From the IMG/VR virus record IMGVR_UViG_2740892423_000023, positions 1-34,951 of that record: a stretch of 34,951 bases of DNA; one strand, given 5' to 3'. A program made the position numbers and the translations under genes. The notes under the pieces are model-generated. The model was given only the letters and a program-made list of their open reading frames with translations, did not search any database and had not been told where the DNA came from. Shown here one piece after another: positions 552 through 33,930 of this stretch (its first letter is position 1; every line of letters begins with the position of its first letter). This stretch comes from a virus (taxonomy: Duplodnaviria > Heunggongvirae > Uroviricota > Caudoviricetes).

Positions 552-1076
552 TTACACGTCAGGTTTTTCCGGCCACTGAATTAAATCAAAGGAAGATTTA
601 TCGCTGACCTGACTTAAATCCAGCGCCTTTACCGCTTTGATATATGCCATCCACTGCATAAGACGGGCTTTATCATCGTCGCTGATGGTGCCCAGCTCCA
701 GCTCGGTTTTCCAGTCGGAGGTGATGTCCTTCGCTTCATTCAGCAGGCGCTGACGTTGTTTTTCTGCCAGTTGCGAATAATCAACAGGAACAGGCAGCAC
801 TTCGCCGTCTTTGTAATACCAGCTGGCTTCAATGCCAAAACCTTCCGGCAGTTCATCCACTTCCACAATGGTGAAGCCAGCCGGATAAAGACGGGACACG
901 TCTTCAGCCATCGAATAAATCACGCCGGTTTCAGGGTGAATACACAATTTGTATTTCTTCGTGAATTTATCCAGTGATTCATAAAAATCCTGTCCGTCCT
1001 CACTGCGGAAATACTGAATGTTTTCACCATAAGGCATCTCTTCCGGGTAATAACGCGTGACGTTTCTGAGTTCCAT
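552..1076 (-). CDS. Tail fiber assembly protein (Tfa/Mu U-like)
   Basis: ORF 552-1112; start refined to ATG 1076 (MELRNVTRYYPEEMPYG) preceded by AAGGAG; C-terminal DKARLMQWMAYIKAVKALDLS typical of Tfa chaperones. Confidence 0.8.
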   Translation of the reverse strand: MELRNVTRYYPEEMPYGENIQYFRSEDGQDFYESLDKFTKKYKLCIHPETGVIYSMAEDVSRLYPAGFTIVEVDELPEGFGIEASWYYKDGEVLPVPVDYSQLAEKQRQRLLNEAKDITSDWKTELELGTISDDDKARLMQWMAYIKAVKALDLSQVSDKSSFDLIQWPEKPDV

Positions 1077-23448: not shown

Positions 23449-23916
23449 TTAATCAAAAAGCCCCACCTGGGTGGGGCTTTTCAGCGAAGTCTGTTTTTGT
23501 CGTCGGTGTATCAGTTGCCATGCGTACCGGTCTGAAATGCCGTAACGGGGACAGAGCAGTGCCAGCGCCTGCCGGTGTGAGCATCCGCCTTTTACATGCT
23601 GCTGTAAATCAGCCATAAAACGGGTGTTACGCAAGGCACGTAACGCATGATCGCAACGGGGAATGTAAAACGGTGCGCCGCCAAGAAAACGGATCAGTTT
23701 GTTGATTTCGTCTTCGGTCAGCACGTCATGTAACAGGGCATGGACACCGCCGGTTCGTTCGGCGTGTGCGCCGGTTTTACCGCTTAACGTCACGCCACCA
23801 AAAGAACGGATTAACCGGGTCAGGGCGGGGAAGCCAATCACGCTAATCAGTTGCTGCACGGAATCAGGCAACAGTGCCTGCGCATCGCGAAGATCTGTTT
23901 CACTGAAGGTCTGCAT
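23449..23916 (-). CDS. Mor/C-family transcriptional activator (only copy in window)
   Basis: 155-aa ORF with GGAGA RBS; C-terminal region ...FYIPRCDHALRALRN...RYGISDRYAWQLIHRR resembles the Mor/C DNA-binding region. Confidence 0.75.
   Translation of the reverse strand: MQTFSETDLRDAQALLPDSVQQLISVIGFPALTRLIRSFGGVTLSGKTGAHAERTGGVHALLHDVLTEDEINKLIRFLGGAPFYIPRCDHALRALRNTRFMADLQQHVKGGCSHRQALALLCPRYGISDRYAWQLIHRRQKQTSLKSPTQVGLFD
23455..23482 (-). terminator. Intrinsic terminator, bidirectional-type, overlapping last codons of the Mor/C gene
   Basis: AAAAAGCCCCACC-TG-GGTGGGGCTTTT; minus-strand hairpin followed by UUUUUGAUUAA; Mor stop at 23449. Confidence 0.7.
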
Positions 23917-24011: not shown

Positions 24012-24434
24012 TTATTGTTTATGTGCTGCTCTGGCTCGTTTTCTGGCGTCTTTTGTCAGCGCCACCATCACCCCGAAAAGCTGTTCATCCGTCAGCCATT
24101 CGATCACATGTTGCTTATACATGTGAGATGCCAGTCCTTCTGCATACGCCCAGGAACGACCGGCATCAGCCAGCAACGCTTCAATTTTGGATAATACCGA
24201 TTTTCTGCTCATTGCAACACGGGGGCGGCGACCTTTACCGACGGGCGCTTTGCGCGGGAATCCCTGTTCGTGCATATATTCCCGGATGATGCGCAGTTCA
24301 TCGAGGTTGCAGCGTGTGGTGCTGGTTTTACCGGTCAGGCGGGCCAGCGTCTGGCGATAAAGGGCATCATCCCACCCCAGATACGCCTGACCGGCTTTAA
24401 TGGCTCCGATCATCTTTTTCAGCATGTTTGTTAT
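24012..24434 (-). CDS. gemA: GemA-like regulatory protein (DUF1018-like)
   Basis: ORF 24012-24551; start refined to ATG 24434 (MLKKMIGAIKAGQAYLGWDDALYRQTLARLTGK), characteristic N-terminal pattern; position before Mor. Confidence 0.65.
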   Translation of the reverse strand: MTNMLKKMIGAIKAGQAYLGWDDALYRQTLARLTGKTSTTRCNLDELRIIREYMHEQGFPRKAPVGKGRRPRVAMSRKSVLSKIEALLADAGRSWAYAEGLASHMYKQHVIEWLTDEQLFGVMVALTKDARKRARAAHKQ

Positions 24435-24675
24435 CCTCAAAACGCACGGTAAAACGTGAAACACCAATCCCTGACAGAAACGCGGCGGCACGGTCAAGAG
24501 ACAGCCACGTCTTGTAATCGCCACGGCGTTCCTGTAGAAAATAGGACACACCAGCGCGGCGATTCACAGCGAATAGATGATACACACCACCGAACCGCTG
24601 CACGACGAACTCATCCACGCCACCGCTTTCAGCCTGTTGCCGGAAGGCTGCCATTCCGATTTGTTCAATCTTCAT
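24397..24675 (-). CDS. Hypothetical protein (92 aa), possible DNA-binding protein
   Basis: ORF 24397-24711; ATG 24675 (MKIEQIGMAAFRQQ); no SD; preceded by palindromic hairpins. Confidence 0.45.
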   Translation of the reverse strand: MKIEQIGMAAFRQQAESGGVDEFVVQRFGGVYHLFAVNRRAGVSYFLQERRGDYKTWLSLDRAAAFLSGIGVSRFTVRFEDNKHAEKDDRSH

Positions 24676-25485: not shown

Positions 25486-26076
25486 TCACTCTCCTTTGAT
25501 GCGAATGCCTGCGGCACGTAGCACATTAACTTCCACGATGCGCACAGTTGGTTTGTACATCTCAATTGCTGTCAGCCAGTCAGCGCCAGTCATGCGCTTT
25601 TCTGCATCGCCATTAGTCCACTTAACCGGTACACCAATAGCCTTCATCGCGATTTCTATTTCCCCGGCAATGGCGCTTTTTCCGCAACCAGTAAAACCAG
25701 ATACAACGACAAGAACTTCGCCTTTGGCTGGTTTTATTTCCCGTGCTTCCAGTTCTGCTATGCGCTTCTCTGCGGCTTCCAGCTTCTTGTAAAGAGCATC
25801 CCAACTTGTCGAGTTATCCATAACCAGCTTTGTAACCCGCTCTTCGCGTGATTTGTAATACTCCAGTTCATCCAGCAGTGCCAGCACGGTAGCCGGATTG
25901 GCTGCTGCTATGAATCGCTTATTGGCGCGATTATCTGGTCCTGAGCATGATGCTATGTAGTAATTTGCGTTCAGTCCGGCATCAGCAATTACCCCATAGT
26001 AATCATCAGAACACCATTCGCCTGGTGTTGCATTTTCTGCCGCCATTCGCAGTGCCTGATAGTTAACTTCACTCAC
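25486..26076 (-). CDS. Ead/Ea22-like protein
   Basis: 196-aa ORF, GTG start with AGGAGG RBS; N-terminal ...ALRMAAENATPGEW... typical of Ea22-like proteins of lambdoid phages. Confidence 0.6.
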   Translation of the reverse strand: MSEVNYQALRMAAENATPGEWCSDDYYGVIADAGLNANYYIASCSGPDNRANKRFIAAANPATVLALLDELEYYKSREERVTKLVMDNSTSWDALYKKLEAAEKRIAELEAREIKPAKGEVLVVVSGFTGCGKSAIAGEIEIAMKAIGVPVKWTNGDAEKRMTGADWLTAIEMYKPTVRIVEVNVLRAAGIRIKGE

Positions 26077-27223: not shown

Positions 27224-27934
27224 TTACCCCCTCCCCAGTGCCAGCGGTCTGTTGCTCTGACCATTAACCCCCTGATGCAGCCTGGCGTTTTTCCCGGCGA
27301 TAAAACCGGCAGTAGCGGCAAACTCTGCACCCCGACACGCTTTAGCTGTGCGCATATCCCCGTCGCGCAGTCCTTTAGTGCTGTGCAGGTTCTTTCTGTA
27401 AAGCTCAAGGCGACTTTTTTCTTCCGGGGAGACGTCATACACCGCAATGACATCACGGGCACCAAAGACCCAGCCTTCGCAGAACTGGTCGCCACGGGCT
27501 ACCCGCGTGGACGGGCCGCAACGTTTGCAGTGTTTATCCTGATATTTCTTGCGCTCTGCCATCATCTGACGGGAAAGCACATCAAACGCGTAAGCCGCGA
27601 TTTCCGGGCGGCTGTCAGAGCCATAAAAACGCACGTGACGTTTGAGTGAACCAGAAGCCCGGTACTCACCGGATATGTAACACTCGACACCGAAGGCTTT
27701 ACAGACCAGGTCACACAGGATGTGCATATAACGCGGCGGCGTACTGGCATCACTCGGCGCACCCGCGCTGGCAGCTTCCTGAATGTCGAACAATTCAGCG
27801 TCGTTTTCGCTGATGCCATGCTGGCGCATATAAACCTGGGCTTTTGCAATAGCGTTAGCGGCTTCTTCCGGGCTTGATGTCCCTCTGGCAAGGCGTAACA
27901 GTTTTTTGATTTTGGCAATGTATTTATCTTTCAT
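27224..27934 (-). CDS. DUF2786-like protein (236 aa)
   Basis: N-terminus MKDKYIAKIKKLLRLARGTSSPEEAANAIAKAQVYMRQHGI matches the pattern I recall for DUF2786. Confidence 0.55.
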   Translation of the reverse strand: MKDKYIAKIKKLLRLARGTSSPEEAANAIAKAQVYMRQHGISENDAELFDIQEAASAGAPSDASTPPRYMHILCDLVCKAFGVECYISGEYRASGSLKRHVRFYGSDSRPEIAAYAFDVLSRQMMAERKKYQDKHCKRCGPSTRVARGDQFCEGWVFGARDVIAVYDVSPEEKSRLELYRKNLHSTKGLRDGDMRTAKACRGAEFAATAGFIAGKNARLHQGVNGQSNRPLALGRG

Positions 27935-27947
27935 GGTCGTCTGAACC

Positions 27948-28130
27948 TCAGCATCCTGAATTCTGAATTACGCGACTTCCGGCACGGCCTTCAGGAGCGT
28001 GGGGAGCTCGTTCTGGCTGCGGCGCTGAATGAACATCTGCTGTTGATTGAGAACTGGTCGCAAGACGATTAAAACAAACGATTGTCAGATTAATTTCGCG
28101 GGCGAATTTTTTTTGCTTAGCGATATTCAT
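27948..28130 (-). CDS. Small ORF (60 aa), doubtful
   Basis: GAGGAAG RBS 9 nt before ATG 28130, directly after repeat copy A; product low-complexity. Confidence 0.25.
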   Translation of the reverse strand: MNIAKQKKFAREINLTIVCFNRLATSSQSTADVHSAPQPERAPHAPEGRAGSRVIQNSGC

Positions 28131-28146
28131 AAATAAACTTCCTCAG

Positions 28147-28205
28147 ATTCAGGCGTAAGCCAGCCCCGGCGGGTTTACGCCATATACAAATAAAATTAAA
28201 AACAG
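28147..28205 (-). repeat. Repeat copy A: 35-bp GC-rich palindromic core plus A/T-rich tail
   Basis: attcaggcgtaagccagccccggcgggtttacgcc at 28147-28181, identical to 28772-28806; outer arms GGCGTAA/TTACGCC. Confidence 0.8.
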
Positions 28206-28210
28206 ACTTA

Positions 28211-28762
28211 TTAACTACGACATTCAGCTTTCCGGTAATGACGGTCAACAGACTTTACGAACGCCTTCACATCACGGGAAATCGAATCCAGCGGATAATA
28301 TTCATTCAGCAGTTCCATTCCACTGAATCGAATCTGAAAAAAATCAGGCTTATCTTTATATGACTCCATCAGGTCAATAAACCGCAACTGACGCGGGAGG
28401 GATTCCTGCACGCCTGAAATAGTGAGCAAATCACCTTCAAGAATGTCCCGGAGGTCTTCCATACCCTCCCTACATGACTGCATGGATATTCTTGTCAGTA
28501 TGTTGCGTGTCGCGAGGTACAGTGCCACCGTGTCATTTGCCATCATGGCGAACAAATCCCCCTGAATATAAGCCCCCTTACTGGCCATAGCATTCCCGGC
28601 AATCTGGGCATTAAGTACCACATCCATAAAACTACCGGGTCCTCCCAGACGTCCCAGCAATGATGACGCCCATAACGTTACATTGGTTAACTTCTCAGAT
28701 GAACGGGTAGCAAAACCTTCAGGAGTAACAATAAAATCCCAGACTTTATCTTTCATATACAA
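28211..28762 (-). CDS. Hypothetical protein (183 aa), repeat-flanked cargo gene
   Basis: AAGGGGA RBS; no family recognised; lower GC than flanks; bracketed by repeat copies A and B. Confidence 0.6.
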   Translation of the reverse strand: MYMKDKVWDFIVTPEGFATRSSEKLTNVTLWASSLLGRLGGPGSFMDVVLNAQIAGNAMASKGAYIQGDLFAMMANDTVALYLATRNILTRISMQSCREGMEDLRDILEGDLLTISGVQESLPRQLRFIDLMESYKDKPDFFQIRFSGMELLNEYYPLDSISRDVKAFVKSVDRHYRKAECRS

Positions 28763-28771
28763 ATCCCCTTA

Positions 28772-28831
28772 ATTCAGGCGTAAGCCAGCCCCGGCGGGTT
28801 TACGCCTGTTTTAAATAACAATTAAAAACAA
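28772..28831 (-). repeat. Repeat copy B: 35-bp GC-rich palindromic core plus A/T-rich tail
   Basis: Identical 35-bp core at 28772-28806 followed by tgttttaaataacaattaaaaacaa, similar to the copy A tail. Confidence 0.8.
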
Positions 28832-28837
28832 ATTAAA

Positions 28838-29029
28838 TTAATGCGGTGCTTTCAGTGTTTCGACTTTTACGAAATAAGGCTCGACATTAATTTCAACCAC
28901 ACAACCACATTTAAAATCTCTGGCCGGTGAAACGGTTTTCACCACACGACCACCACGCAACGCCGGATGTGCAGTGTGCATGAAGCGAGTCCCTACCGGA
29001 TACTGCTTATTAAAGTTCTTCGCATTCAT
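28838..29029 (-). CDS. Hypothetical protein (63 aa)
   Basis: GGAGG RBS 7 nt before ATG 29029. Confidence 0.45.
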   Translation of the reverse strand: MNAKNFNKQYPVGTRFMHTAHPALRGGRVVKTVSPARDFKCGCVVEINVEPYFVKVETLKAPH

Positions 29030-29243
29030 GGCGTGGCCTCCAGCCCTTCAGGTGAGCGTTAGCGCAGAACTCCGCACGATGTTCAGCCCAGATACGACGC
29101 AGGGTACTACATGGGCTTTGTGCTGCCTTACGCCACAGCTTTTCAGCCCCGGCATAATCGCCGCGTTGTTCTGCTCTGGATGCACCCAGCGAATACGCTG
29201 CGCAACTATTTCCGGCTCTGTACTCTTTGATATCCTGATGCAT
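29010..29243 (-). CDS. Hypothetical protein (about 77 aa)
   Basis: ORF 29010-29354; start refined to ATG 29243 (MHQDIKEYRAGN), 2 nt after upstream stop. Confidence 0.45.
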   Translation of the reverse strand: MHQDIKEYRAGNSCAAYSLGASRAEQRGDYAGAEKLWRKAAQSPCSTLRRIWAEHRAEFCANAHLKGWRPRHECEEL

Positions 29244-30597: not shown

Positions 30598-30947
30598 TAT
30601 CTGAGTGCAAACGCAAGTCGTGGCTGATAACGGGGAAGACGGGCACACATACGCGCAAGACGATAAGCCCGACGAAACCCCTGTAAAGTCTGCTCAAAAG
30701 GAATAATCATTAATCGCGCACAGCATTCATCAACATCCCAGTCGTCGCTGGTATTTCCGGTTCCATTGATTTCCCGTTCACGGGAATACAAATCAATGCG
30801 CAGTTCACCCGGCACGAAGCAATCAACAAACGGAATAATTTCACCAGGGGTTCCATTAGAATAAATACAACCATTACGACCAATACTCTGTAGTGCCCTT
30901 ATTTCATTTCTGAGAGCCATTTTTTCCATGCGCAAAACTCCAGTCAC
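30597..30947 (-). CDS. Hypothetical early protein (116 aa; start GTG 30947 or ATG 30929)
   Basis: First gene after MuB (kil-region position); GTGA overlap with MuB stop. Confidence 0.45.
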   Translation of the reverse strand: MTGVLRMEKMALRNEIRALQSIGRNGCIYSNGTPGEIIPFVDCFVPGELRIDLYSREREINGTGNTSDDWDVDECCARLMIIPFEQTLQGFRRAYRLARMCARLPRYQPRLAFALR

Positions 30948-31837
30948 TTAATTAACATTTCGGAGAATTTCTCAATAGCTTTTACGCTCACTGGCACTTT
31001 GGTGACATCACTCATCCGGTACACGCCACGCACCAGTTTGAACAGGCGACGGGCGTTACCACGCGAATATGTATAAAGCGCCTCGCCGATTTCTGGCGTT
31101 TCCGCTTCCGGCATCAATTCTGTGGCTATTGGCGTAAAATCCTCTGGCGACAACGTATTCCCCATATCAAGCGCCACACCCACACGACTGTATAACTGAG
31201 CGAACTCCCCGCGATTACCCTTAAGATTAGTCACAAGGCGCGGCATACCCGCCAGAACAATCCCGATACCCGCCTTGTCATGCAGACGGCGCAGAACCTC
31301 CAGTGCACGGTAGGGGAGTAGCTCGGCTTCATCCACCATCAGCAGACGACCGGAATCACGCAGTTCGCGCACACAGACATCAATCAGTTCGTGAATACTG
31401 CCGCGAACCTTTACCCCCAGCTGGCGACACAGCTCCCCGAGTAGCGCCCTGGCTGTATAGCCGGTGTCAGCCTCAATCAGTATCGCATCCCGGTTTCTGG
31501 CGGCGTATTCACTCAGAATCATTGTTTTTCCAAGACCAGCCTCGCCATGCAGCACGCAGATTTCACAATACGCATGAGCATAAGAGAGCATCTCCAGCCC
31601 TTTATCTGCCATTTCCGTGGCGACAAATTTCGCTTTAACACGACGATTACTTTGCTTCTCCAGCTCACGACTGACAAAGGAAGATATACGCTCTTCAACG
31701 TCAGTAACGTCACCTACATATTTACCCTGTAAGTACTGGTTGATAACGGCGCTACTACGACCAATTGCACGACCAACGTGGGTCTGCGTATAGCCGCAAC
31801 GGGCCATTACGTCATTTAATTGCGTAATTAAACTCAT
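30944..31837 (-). CDS. Transposition ATPase, MuB-like (AAA+)
   Basis: 297-aa ORF; Walker A GEAGLGKT, Walker B LLMVDEAE; directly downstream of transposase. Confidence 0.9.
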   Translation of the reverse strand: MSLITQLNDVMARCGYTQTHVGRAIGRSSAVINQYLQGKYVGDVTDVEERISSFVSRELEKQSNRRVKAKFVATEMADKGLEMLSYAHAYCEICVLHGEAGLGKTMILSEYAARNRDAILIEADTGYTARALLGELCRQLGVKVRGSIHELIDVCVRELRDSGRLLMVDEAELLPYRALEVLRRLHDKAGIGIVLAGMPRLVTNLKGNRGEFAQLYSRVGVALDMGNTLSPEDFTPIATELMPEAETPEIGEALYTYSRGNARRLFKLVRGVYRMSDVTKVPVSVKAIEKFSEMLIK

Positions 31838-31854: not shown

Positions 31855-33930
31855 TTAACGGTTGTTTGTGCCGTCTTTCTTTAAATTGCGGTCACGCTCG
31901 GATGCAAAGAAATAAAGTTCTTCTTTTTTCTTTTCCTCCTTACGCTCCAGACCAAATCCAAAATTAAAGTCAGGTTTCTGCGTAATAGCCGGGGTAAGCT
32001 CGCGTTTAGCCTCTTCGATTTTCTGCGTGGCCCGTGCAATGCGGCCTCTGACGCGTTTCTCCAGTTTTTGTTCGATAACTGGTTTAGCGAAGGCATCAAC
32101 CTTGTTACCGTTCCAGATGGCATCGCAGATATAAGAGCCATCAGCCCGCCGGACAATGACACTGTTTGCGTCATGAATATCGTAACTGACCCTGACTTCA
32201 TTCCCGTGCTCTGCGGCCAGCTCATACGAGTAATAAATATTGTTGAATAACTGAATTTCCCCGCGAAATGTTTTGCGCGTCACCTCCGGCCTGAACATTT
32301 CATGCAGCTCTTCCGGCGACAGGAAATCAATTTCAACATTCTGCTCTTTTATCAGTTTCCGGCGATACGCTGCCGGGCTGTAATATTCGCCATCCTCTTT
32401 GCGGGGAAGGCTGCTGTGTGGCCGGTTGTTATAGCGTCTGACCTCCAGCTCTATGGCGGCCATCAGTTGCTCAAAGGTGGGGATTTCATCCCTCGCCTTA
32501 ACCTGCCGTTTTGTCAGCTCTTTCCCTTTGTGGGTGGCCTTAATGGCTGACTGCATAATCCGTTGCTGCATCATTACGGTTTCCTTGTCTGCATCCCTTG
32601 CGCAGTACGTCTGGAAACTCAGAGCCACGTCTTTAGGTATTCCTTTGTTTGCCCGTTCAATCACCCCGCGCCCCTGCGGGTTACCTGGTATCCCCGTGTG
32701 ATGTTCTACACCCAGCCGGGGCAGAATCCCGGTAATATCGGCATCAAGCACCCGGTTTTTTTCACCGCCCCCGTTATCGGAGTAATAAATCAGCGGTATC
32801 CCGTGCTGCGCCATGCCGTAACGTAACGCATCAGCAACGGCTATCACGTTCTCCGACAGGGACAGTGACCAGCCCACAACAAAGCGTTGCCCAGCATCCA
32901 TAACCAGCGTCACTTCTGGCCGGAAAATATTGCCGGTCAGGGGGTTAAACGCGGTCATTTTCATACAGTGACCATCCCCGACCCATACCGCATTAACCGG
33001 TAATGATGTCCAGTCGCGCCGCACAAAGGGATTGAGCGAACGCCAGGCTGAACCGGTGGAGCGGAAACGCTCTTTAACAATCACCGGGACGCTGCTTAAC
33101 ACCCGTCTTACTGCGTGAACTGAAGGCAGTGCCGCCAGCATTCCCGCATCATTCGCGTGTTTTTCATGCCACCAGGCTGAAAACTCACGATACGCATATT
33201 CAACAGTCGGGCGCTTCCATGAGCGATAGAACATAAAGAAATCGCTCAACCACCAGACCTGCTCCCACGGTGTTCCCTTATGATGACCGGGAGCCAGTAA
33301 CGCCAGTAACTGATTGGCATCACCGCGCGCCATCAGCCAGGCGGAATACCATTCCTGTAAACTCCCTGTACTGACGCCAGTTCGCTTACCCTGTCGGGCA
33401 TTGGCGGTATTACCTGCCACAATAACGCGCTCGGGCAAAGCCTCCTGGCGGATACCATCAACGATGTGTTTTATCGCTGCCGTCCTGGACATTCCTGCGT
33501 ATTCACGCAGTTTATGCACTTCGGTAGCCAGCAATATCCGCGCATCAGCGATGGCCTTTTGCTTGTCGGTCAGTGCCTGAACTTCGCGTAATGCCAGTTC
33601 CGGGCATTTGACCATCACCTCCAGCTCATCGCGGACGGTGACGTTTTTAGCTGCCTTCTGCTCAACCACTGCGGGCAGTTGCGCATCTTCCAGGACCTGA
33701 TGGGTCAGGCGTTGACGTAAAACCTTCTGAACATCTTTAGGTAAACTGGATATATGGTACTCATATATTTTCCCCTGAACTCCAGACTTCCTTCTTCTTG
33801 TCCAGTTCGCTCGTTTAGCTTTTTGAGTGATCCCCTGTACAGTTTTCGGTAGCCCTTGAAGCCCTGTTAGTTCATTCAACGTAAACCATTCAGGTTCGAA
33901 CTTGACTTCATAGTCGTTGTTCTTATTCAT
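31855..33930 (-). CDS. DDE transposase, MuA-like
   Basis: 691-aa ORF; N-terminal winged-helix region (LTGLQGLPKTVQGITQKAKRANW) related to the repressor N-terminus; overlaps ner stop. Confidence 0.9.
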   Translation of the reverse strand: MNKNNDYEVKFEPEWFTLNELTGLQGLPKTVQGITQKAKRANWTRRRKSGVQGKIYEYHISSLPKDVQKVLRQRLTHQVLEDAQLPAVVEQKAAKNVTVRDELEVMVKCPELALREVQALTDKQKAIADARILLATEVHKLREYAGMSRTAAIKHIVDGIRQEALPERVIVAGNTANARQGKRTGVSTGSLQEWYSAWLMARGDANQLLALLAPGHHKGTPWEQVWWLSDFFMFYRSWKRPTVEYAYREFSAWWHEKHANDAGMLAALPSVHAVRRVLSSVPVIVKERFRSTGSAWRSLNPFVRRDWTSLPVNAVWVGDGHCMKMTAFNPLTGNIFRPEVTLVMDAGQRFVVGWSLSLSENVIAVADALRYGMAQHGIPLIYYSDNGGGEKNRVLDADITGILPRLGVEHHTGIPGNPQGRGVIERANKGIPKDVALSFQTYCARDADKETVMMQQRIMQSAIKATHKGKELTKRQVKARDEIPTFEQLMAAIELEVRRYNNRPHSSLPRKEDGEYYSPAAYRRKLIKEQNVEIDFLSPEELHEMFRPEVTRKTFRGEIQLFNNIYYSYELAAEHGNEVRVSYDIHDANSVIVRRADGSYICDAIWNGNKVDAFAKPVIEQKLEKRVRGRIARATQKIEEAKRELTPAITQKPDFNFGFGLERKEEKKKEELYFFASERDRNLKKDGTNNR

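Follow-up and report, generated by a model that had tools for sequence, protein, structure and literature searches.

Why does a Mu-like prophage keep two copies of one palindrome around a single small gene of its early operon, and to which of the two, gene or phage, does the palindrome belong? The DNA considered here is a 34,951-nt stretch of the Caudoviricetes record IMGVR_UViG_2740892423_000023 (the window), a Mu-like prophage whose left (immunity) end lies at high coordinates. The repeat-bracketed gene is situated in the early operon, approximately 3 kb past B along transcription, and a preliminary description made from the sequence alone took it for an independently acquired moron or accessory module. 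Our findings show that the repeat is a hairpin of the phage itself, conserved as far as Mu, and that the gene is one of many optional cassettes found behind it. The overall explanation that we favor, and hold to be probable, combines a conserved intercistronic hairpin, cassette exchange at hairpin copies and an RNA-level action on the early mRNA. The features that carry this argument are given below.

28777..28806, minus strand: hairpin copy 2, promoter-proximal; mRNA-sense GGCGTAAACCCGCCGGGGCTGGCTTACGCC; covariance score 51.4 bits
28152..28181, minus strand: hairpin copy 1, promoter-distal; identical in sequence to copy 2
28211..28756, minus strand: cargo gene for an orphan protein of 181 aa, predicted to be all-alpha and acidic (isoelectric point 5.5); phrog_7741, 'unknown function'
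28757..28776, minus strand: cargo-gene leader, UGAAU followed by the Shine-Dalgarno sequence AAGGGGA (28764-28770)
28807..28837, minus strand: AT-rich spacer from the stop codon of the 63-aa gene to hairpin copy 2, with conserved TTAA / TTTAAA motifs
28182..28210, minus strand: AT-rich spacer from the stop codon of the 181-aa gene to hairpin copy 1, which travels with the 181-aa gene

The GC-rich core of the repeat, 35 nt long, is identical at 28147-28181 and 28772-28806 (none expected by chance), and the similarity reaches 56 nt at 86% identity (28147-28202 and 28772-28827). In the window its 30-nt palindromic part has two matches and no more, also when three mismatches are allowed, whereas 100 shuffles gave none, and the covariance model finds the same two hairpin copies and no others in the window. 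Alignment and shuffle test therefore bear out the identical core of the preliminary description, along with its direct repeats of roughly 60 bp around one minus-strand open reading frame (ORF). The placement that it gave to each repeat, ahead of a ribosome-binding site and start codon, is likewise confirmed, as on the minus strand the hairpin ends 5-8 nt before a Shine-Dalgarno sequence and about 20 nt before the starts at 28756 and 28130. Read in the mRNA sense, both intergenic regions present a stop codon, an AT-rich spacer of about 30 nt, the hairpin GGCGUAAACCCGCCGGGGCUGGCUUACGCC, UGAAU, a Shine-Dalgarno sequence and a start codon, and no other intergenic gap of any size occurs in this stretch of the operon. 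Copy 2 is the resident copy, found behind the 63-aa gene in almost all related phages; its lower stem of 7 bp is followed by an A.C mismatch, 2 bp, a C.U mismatch, another 2 bp and the CGGG loop. Copy 1 follows the 181-aa gene in every context containing that gene, and the cargo leader stays with the cargo gene behind type-A and type-B hairpins alike. The spacer is 84% A+T over 30 nt, with the consensus A.TTAA...TTAA...TTTAAA.AT. In the window (28807-28837) and in the equivalent spacers of all related loci, the TTAA, TTAA and TTTAAA blocks are positioned near -30, -18 and -7 relative to the hairpin, a phasing of some 11-12 nt that suggests bent DNA or a protein site, with no promoter score.

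That the palindrome is maintained as a fold is evident from 33 distinct hairpin variants, among which 7 of 13 pairs have changes on both sides and the covariation score lies above all 500 shuffles. In controls with slid partners the score was 2-5 fold lower and the share of paired cells roughly halved. The 7-bp lower stem takes the forms GGCGUAA/UUACGCC, GGCGCGA/UCGCGCC (in Mu) and GGCGCAG/CUGCGCC (in type B), all of them fully paired, and the internal mismatch region and the G-rich NGGG loop are conserved. The element is a hairpin with compensatory stem changes, and in the predicted folds it leaves the Shine-Dalgarno sequence unsequestered.

The relation between gene and hairpin can be read from prophages that differ in their cargo. 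Among 5426 complete Escherichia coli genomes the repeat was present in 59, at 90 places with a median of one per genome, and the cargo gene accompanied it in 28 of the 59, so that the ORF is not universal even among close relatives. At all nine E. coli loci read, the weakest match included, the repeat occupied the same position in a Mu-like prophage. A common host repeat unrelated to the gene, a possibility that the preliminary description had raised, was therefore not borne out by the genome-wide search, and a repetitive extragenic palindromic (REP) repeat or bacterial interspersed mosaic element (BIME) of the host is ruled out. Strain M8 (locus L003) has the same state as the window. In strain GF75 (L002) the site is empty: the locus is shorter by exactly 625 bp and retains one hybrid repeat, which joins the left flank of copy 1 to the tail of copy 2. 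Four further strains, STEC313, STEC308, STEC346 and RM9088 (L001, L004, L005 and L007), carry a second cassette, which encodes a DUF7448 protein and is parted from the 181-aa gene by a variant hairpin, GGCGCAGGUAAACAGGUCUGCGCC, whose stem departs from that of the standard hairpin through compensatory changes. Such E. coli prophages hold 0, 1 or 2 cassettes and, because of these alleles and the hybrid repeat of the shorter empty site, we regard the gene as an accessory cassette that is acquired and lost through recombination between hairpin copies. The gene and one repeat come and go together as a unit, in line with what the preliminary description had envisaged for the comparison of related prophages.

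The hairpin itself extends well beyond these genomes. An exact-pattern scan of IMG/VR found it in 34 contigs at the same position, many with unrelated flanks. A degenerate scan of one genome per species, in which the matches found had 0-6 substitutions, recovered it in Kluyvera, Buttiauxella, Intestinirhabdus, Citrobacter, Trabulsiella, Pectobacterium, Kosakonia, Phytobacter, Symbiopectobacterium, Photorhabdus, Xenorhabdus, Yersinia, Pantoea, Erwinia and Brenneria, approximately 15 enterobacterial genera in all, and the arrangement was the same each time. As a guard against selection bias, 80 loci were picked solely because they encode a homologue of the upstream 63-aa protein; the hairpin is present in nearly all of them, some 30 nt past the 63-aa stop codon, and identity across the 80 is approximately 91% in the hairpin, 62% at the nucleotide level in the gene and 56% in the spacer. 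Isolated phages with the hairpin are Klebsiella phage ST405-OXA48phi1.1 and 'Pseudomonas' phage VW-6B. Phage Mu carries a clear homologue, GGCGCGAUACGUCAGGAGAUUGCUCGCGCC, at AF083977 6368-6397, inside the 98 nt that separate gam from gene 11, with the same kind of AT-rich spacer upstream and a UGAAAC leader, where the record has nothing annotated. All Mu-lineage contigs (Gam at least 90% identical) have the hairpin right after gam, and it was not found in more distant Gam-encoding contigs. The conservation is unexpectedly deep and strict, reaching Mu itself.

Taken over all of these genomes, the hairpin is a conserved intercistronic element that follows gam, DUF3164 or the 63-aa gene in the Mu-like phages of Enterobacterales. 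It sits at the border of the conserved early genes (ner, A, B ... gam/DUF3164, ANR, 63-aa) and the variable 'semi-essential' region, and, being present without the cargo gene and in Mu, it is a resident phage element and not specific to the cargo. Obligate pairing with the 63-aa protein is ruled out, since Mu and L071 carry the hairpin without that gene. Searches of the open-access literature, outside which the older Mu literature largely falls, returned no description of the element, whether by hairpin sequence or as a stem-loop of Mu gam or the early operon.

Perfect hairpins whose outer arms match those described here, GGCGTAAGTCC-loop-GGACTTACGCC, with variable loops, also occur in about 45 Clostridia and Bacteroidales genomes (GTDB contigs; loci L043, L047, L058, L060, L063, L064, L066, L068, L072, L075, L081, L091, L092, L094, L101, L104 and others). 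They probably form a separate family that shares the arms by chance, and Rfam has no family over the positions checked in them.

The position behind the hairpin is a hotspot. More than 30 unrelated genes start just behind it in different phages, among them DUF2786, the 181-aa family, DUF7448, the 60-aa gene, a 125-aa CxxC protein, genes for 59-aa and 71-aa products and GemA-like proteins. Salmonella prophages carry arrays of two to three hairpins with other cargo: 63aa - HP - DUF7448 - HP' - 125aa - HP - 88aa in L035 and 63aa - HP' - 188aa - HP - 88aa in L140 (HP and HP', hairpins). The 188-aa protein from Salmonella is distantly homologous to the cargo (39% identity across the 66 C-terminal residues, E = 8e-10) and, as it is hairpin-flanked, the cargo family fills the same hairpin-bounded slot in two genera. 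The leader after CGCC tracks the downstream gene, and the AT spacer and hairpin type track the upstream gene, so that the mobile unit is composed of leader, ORF, spacer and hairpin. The 181-aa gene is one such accessory cassette, located directly behind the resident hairpin. Judging from the states found in related phages, recombination between hairpin copies, for the most part homologous over the repeat of 30-70 bp, probably accounts for the gain, loss, duplication and shuffling of cassettes and for the resulting arrays of 0-3 cassettes. Both the empty-site allele and the longer repeats of 56-72 nt fit homologous recombination between hairpin copies.

Two further loci add to the range of arrangements. 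In L144 (IMGVR_UViG_2778261572_000005), from about 3337 onward, a partial tandem second 181-aa cassette stands behind its own hairpin; its product shares the first 8 residues (MKDKVWS...) and then diverges, with an ORF of only 123 aa, which looks like duplication of a cassette followed by decay. In the L038 / L139 lineage a small hairpin, GGCGAATTTTTCGTTATTCGTC, lies between DUF7448 and DUF2786, which suggests that more hairpin types exist beyond the reach of the covariance model.

With regard to the cargo itself, the ORF listed at 28211-28762 on the minus strand exists as described, with 183 aa from a TTG at 28762; that start is probably wrong, and the ATG at 28756, which gives 181 aa, is preferred because of the annotation of RefSeq homologues and the Shine-Dalgarno sequence ahead of it. 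Eight distinct alleles have a median ratio of nonsynonymous to synonymous substitution rates (dN/dS) of 0.30, and the ORF is a real gene under purifying selection. Its G+C content is 46%, lower than that of the DUF2786 and DUF3164 genes (52-54%) and of the window as a whole (53.8%). The preliminary description had called it more AT-rich than its neighbors, which is true of those two genes but not of the adjacent 60-aa and 63-aa genes, which are equally AT-rich (47.5% and 45.3% G+C).

The further statement that the protein has no recognized family was upheld, as hidden Markov model, PDB and structure searches were all uninformative. No match was found in Pfam, NCBIfam or PADLOC, and the sole family match is to PHROGs phrog_7741. 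When 5.8 billion clustered proteins were searched and 1.84 billion representatives were scanned exhaustively with HMMER, relatives came from E. coli only, at 79% identity or more, to which a profile search added the Salmonella branch. A profile search of the PDB gave no sequence match. AlphaFold2 models reached a predicted local distance difference test (pLDDT) score of 41.7, or 54.4 with the Salmonella rows added, and at this low confidence the Foldseek matches, non-significant helical bundles with a best E-value of 0.67, carry no meaning. By its position, the gene would provide an early-expressed, dispensable accessory function. One E. coli protein of 173 aa (P0019), which bears the annotation DUF1804 (PF08822), matches about 55% of the 181-aa cargo at 98% identity and is an apparent chimera or fusion allele.

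The mechanism that we propose depends on the wider setting of the locus, in which the following genes serve as landmarks.

34373 onward, plus strand: Mu-type repressor
Minus strand, preceding MuA in order from the immunity end: Ner gene
31855-33930, minus strand: MuA
30944-31837, minus strand: MuB
28838..29029, minus strand: 63-aa gene, phrog_5591, unknown function; usual upstream neighbor of the hairpin
27948..28130, minus strand: 60-aa ORF, 3' of hairpin copy 1; leader UGAAUCUGAGGAAG, Shine-Dalgarno sequence at 28138-28144
27224..27934, minus strand: DUF2786/DUF7168 gene, the first conserved gene beyond the variable slot
24012-24551: GemA, after the small early genes
23449-23916: Mor-family protein

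The Mor-family gene is followed in the window by Mu portal, F, sheath and tail genes. The Pfam scan covered about 27 of the window's ORFs, a part of the total, and the matches among them are Mu-type (MuA, MuB, Ner, repressor, portal, F, sheath, GemA and Mor). In minimal prophages the DUF2786 gene stands directly behind the hairpin. The 60-aa ORF is optional among related prophages, being missing in L006, L007, L133 and L138, where DUF2786 again directly follows the hairpin; it has no hairpin at its own 3' side and is separated from DUF2786 by a gap of only 13 nt. In strain STEC346 (L005) a 72-aa hypothetical ORF (716-934, plus strand) lies in the opposite orientation between the 60-aa and DUF2786 genes; no other gene on the opposite strand was seen in this variable region. 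A small gene of the ANR family (AraC negative regulator, a name taken from RefSeq homologues) occupies 29010-29243 on the minus strand with a 20-nt overlap with the start of the 63-aa gene, and the window copy has no Pfam match. An Ead/Ea22-like protein (PF13935), of a family typical of lambdoid early regions, is encoded at 25486-26076 on the minus strand of this Mu-like early region and is a further sign of mosaic accessory content.

In the mechanism that we propose, the cargo gene would have no promoter of its own, would share the early polycistronic transcript made from Pe, and would be translated from its own Shine-Dalgarno sequence. On that mRNA the hairpin would serve in processing, as a barrier to decay or in attenuation, and would so set how strongly core genes upstream and accessory genes downstream are expressed relative to each other, and the same hairpin would supply the portable homology for cassette exchange. 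As judged from the anatomy of the locus, mRNA processing, stability or attenuation is the most likely role. A stable stem-loop preceded by an AU-rich single strand is a classical context for RNase E cleavage, and also for hairpins that protect 5' or 3' ends. Known elements gave no competing assignment: in the window Rfam had no match at its gathering score (best E-value 0.31, to Lnt, at 26 bits where 55 are needed), and comparison by eye with consensus sequences gave no convincing match to a CRISPR-repeat mimic, an RfaH ops site, lambda nut/boxB, a tRNA-like minihelix, a CsrA site or a MuA att-site.

Several points weigh against this explanation and we acknowledge them together. Co-transcription and the RNA-level role are both deduced from anatomy. 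The conserved A.C of the coding strand is a G.U on the opposite strand, which is why 25 of the 33 variants fold better antisense; for window copy 2 the values are -26 kcal/mol (z = -4.8) antisense and -22.9 kcal/mol (z = -0.7) sense. The near-invariant primary sequence exceeds what a simple barrier to decay would call for, and hints at a sequence-specific partner or at recombinational homogenization. Lastly, at some junctions the hairpins are of different types with no more than about 9 bp in common (CGCC UGAAU); plain homologous recombination accounts for these junctions less well, and they leave room for a more specific mechanism.

The hint of a partner leads to the first alternative, in which the hairpin is a sequence-specific RNA or DNA site for a conserved phage or host protein that gates the gene behind it, in the manner of Com and mom, so that duplication of a cassette would also share the control. 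Conservation of primary sequence far above that of neighboring coding DNA, retention of the non-Watson-Crick positions and of the NGGG loop, and the fixed short distance from the hairpin to the downstream Shine-Dalgarno sequence are all as expected of such a site, and Mu offers the precedent of Com-mom. However, no candidate binder emerged from our analysis. The 63-aa protein, being absent from Mu and L071, cannot be a universal partner and matches no known RNA- or DNA-binding family, and the type-B hairpin fills the same slot with another stem, loop and length. We consider this alternative unlikely, if worth keeping in view. We are similarly doubtful of a broader proposal, that the hairpin is an undescribed functional element of transposable phages, acting either as a sequence-specific RNA or DNA site that gates the accessory (SEE) region or in a structure-directed, attC-like docking of cassettes that needs no integron integrase. 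If true, either role would explain a sequence kept far more strictly than the neighboring genes.

The folding preference for the antisense strand raises a second alternative, that of a terminator or insulator on the opposite strand that stops antisense transcription from the variable region entering the essential A and B genes. The stability of those 25 variants, with window copy 2 as a clear case, would suit such a function, and at least 5 U are found in the 8 nt after the antisense hairpin in 42 of 101 contexts, including window copy 2, which reads UGUUUUAAAU. Yet over half of the contexts, window copy 1 and Mu among them, have no U-tract on that strand, and other lineages, including Mu in its upper stem, have G.U pairs that favor the coding strand, so that some variants fold better in the sense direction. 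The oppositely oriented ORF of L005 would give an insulator something to act on; since the assigned or annotated early-region ORFs of the window and of most relatives are all on the coding strand, there would usually be nothing to terminate. This role is improbable in our estimation.

A classic moron, the interpretation favored in the preliminary description, would be an autonomous gene that is active in the repressed prophage, with its own promoter in the AT-rich tail upstream and a hairpin serving as terminator downstream. The part of that description which stands is the independent gain and loss of the gene: it is optional, more AT-rich than the core genes, and has AT-rich DNA and a GC hairpin at its flanks. 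The signals themselves could not be found. No sigma-70 promoter is detectable between 28757 and 28837, and over 128 family contexts the top promoter match does not surpass that of shuffles (6.86 as opposed to 7.26, out of 12), by which a sigma-70 promoter in the AT-rich spacer is ruled out. On the coding strand the hairpin is followed by UGAAUCUGAGG, that is, by UGAAU and a Shine-Dalgarno sequence and not by a U-tract; the 8 nt after the sense hairpin hold 2.6 U on average, with at least 5 in 2 of 101 contexts, and a sense-strand intrinsic terminator is ruled out. Furthermore, the element resides in phages without the gene and in Mu, whose record does not include it among its TransTermHP terminator annotations. 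We find the moron in this strict form quite improbable. An integron-like capture, in which the hairpin folds in single-stranded DNA and a site- or structure-specific recombination inserts gene and hairpin at CGCC|UGAAU, would account for the anatomy of a gene with a 3' hairpin, for junctions at the hairpin 3' edge even between types sharing about 9 bp, for the arrays and for the conserved unpaired stem positions, but is highly improbable given a 30-nt hairpin without attC core sites, an empty-site allele and 56-72 nt repeats that fit ordinary homologous recombination, and no tyrosine recombinase among the approximately 27 window ORFs scanned against Pfam, a coverage that does not establish absence.

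Our findings highlight that Mu, a model for decades, carries a strongly conserved, structured intergenic element that is absent from its GenBank annotation, from Rfam and from the searchable literature. The element pinpoints one position of accessory-gene exchange in the Mu-like phages of many enterobacterial genera and, in the form of the sequence handle GGCGTAA...TTACGCC after gam, DUF3164 or the 63-aa gene, allows the accessory-gene pool of these prophages to be harvested. This pool, which includes the 181-aa orphan, DUF7448 and several small Cys-rich proteins, is a natural place to search for anti-defense and host-takeover proteins.

Comparison with known systems helps to define what the element is. 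The morons of lambdoid phages, reportedly the subject of work by Juhala et al. in 2000 and Hendrix et al. in 2000, resemble the 181-aa gene as optional genes of atypical base composition between conserved neighbors in only some relatives; they differ in that their defining promoter and factor-independent terminator were not found here, and in that the flanks of the 181-aa gene are copies of a resident phage element and not imported signals. Integron cassettes likewise consist of an ORF with an imperfect palindrome at its 3' side, arranged in arrays of one orientation behind an upstream promoter, with conserved unpaired bases in the stem. An attC site, in contrast, spans 57-141 nt with R''/L''-L'/R' cores, whereas the present hairpin is 30 nt, runs GGCG...CGCC followed by UGAAU, lacks the RYYYAAC/GTTRRRY cores and has breakpoints compatible with homologous recombination, and no integron integrase was seen among the window ORFs, which were scanned in part. 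REP/BIME and other intercistronic stabilizers, such as the malE-malF REP, are also GC-rich imperfect palindromes of about 30-35 nt between cistrons with a possible action as exonuclease barriers. REP and BIME sequences number in the hundreds as extragenic copies dispersed in the host chromosome, and the element described here differs from them in lying in a Mu-like prophage at every locus read, with no sequence similarity to the REP consensus. The element is therefore not a strict moron, integron cassette or REP, because each of these fails in a defining feature.

Within Mu itself the com-mom system invites comparison, as Com exerts translational control by acting on a hairpin of the mom mRNA. 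Both systems place an RNA stem-loop just upstream of a ribosome-binding site, with a small-protein gene immediately upstream. The present locus, which is a different one, differs in that it has no Com-like zinc-finger protein and in that the Shine-Dalgarno sequence is free in the predicted folds.

The closest described system is the promoter-early stem-loop (PeSL) of T4-type phages. The Mu-like element differs from it in having no detectable sigma-70 promoter component, in marking one hotspot per genome as opposed to about 50 copies, and in belonging to a temperate transposable phage, in which a hairpin that is near-invariant across genera lies inside a single long operon. The likeness is extensive: PeSLs share the succession of stop codon, AT-rich stretch, GC-rich stem-loop, Shine-Dalgarno sequence and start codon, they concentrate in hyperplastic regions beside ORFan genes, and recombination between their copies inserts, deletes and shuffles genes (PMC2839356; Comeau et al. 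2014, PMC4122927). Here, too, a repeated intergenic stem-loop flanks ORFans, and the insertions and deletions between relatives are bounded by repeats. In T4-type phages the stem-loops lowered expression of a downstream reporter (Arbiol et al. 2010, PMC2839356), and Mu cts lysogens offer a tractable case, parallel to these PeSLs, of intercistronic hairpins that shape both operon expression and the modular evolution of phages.

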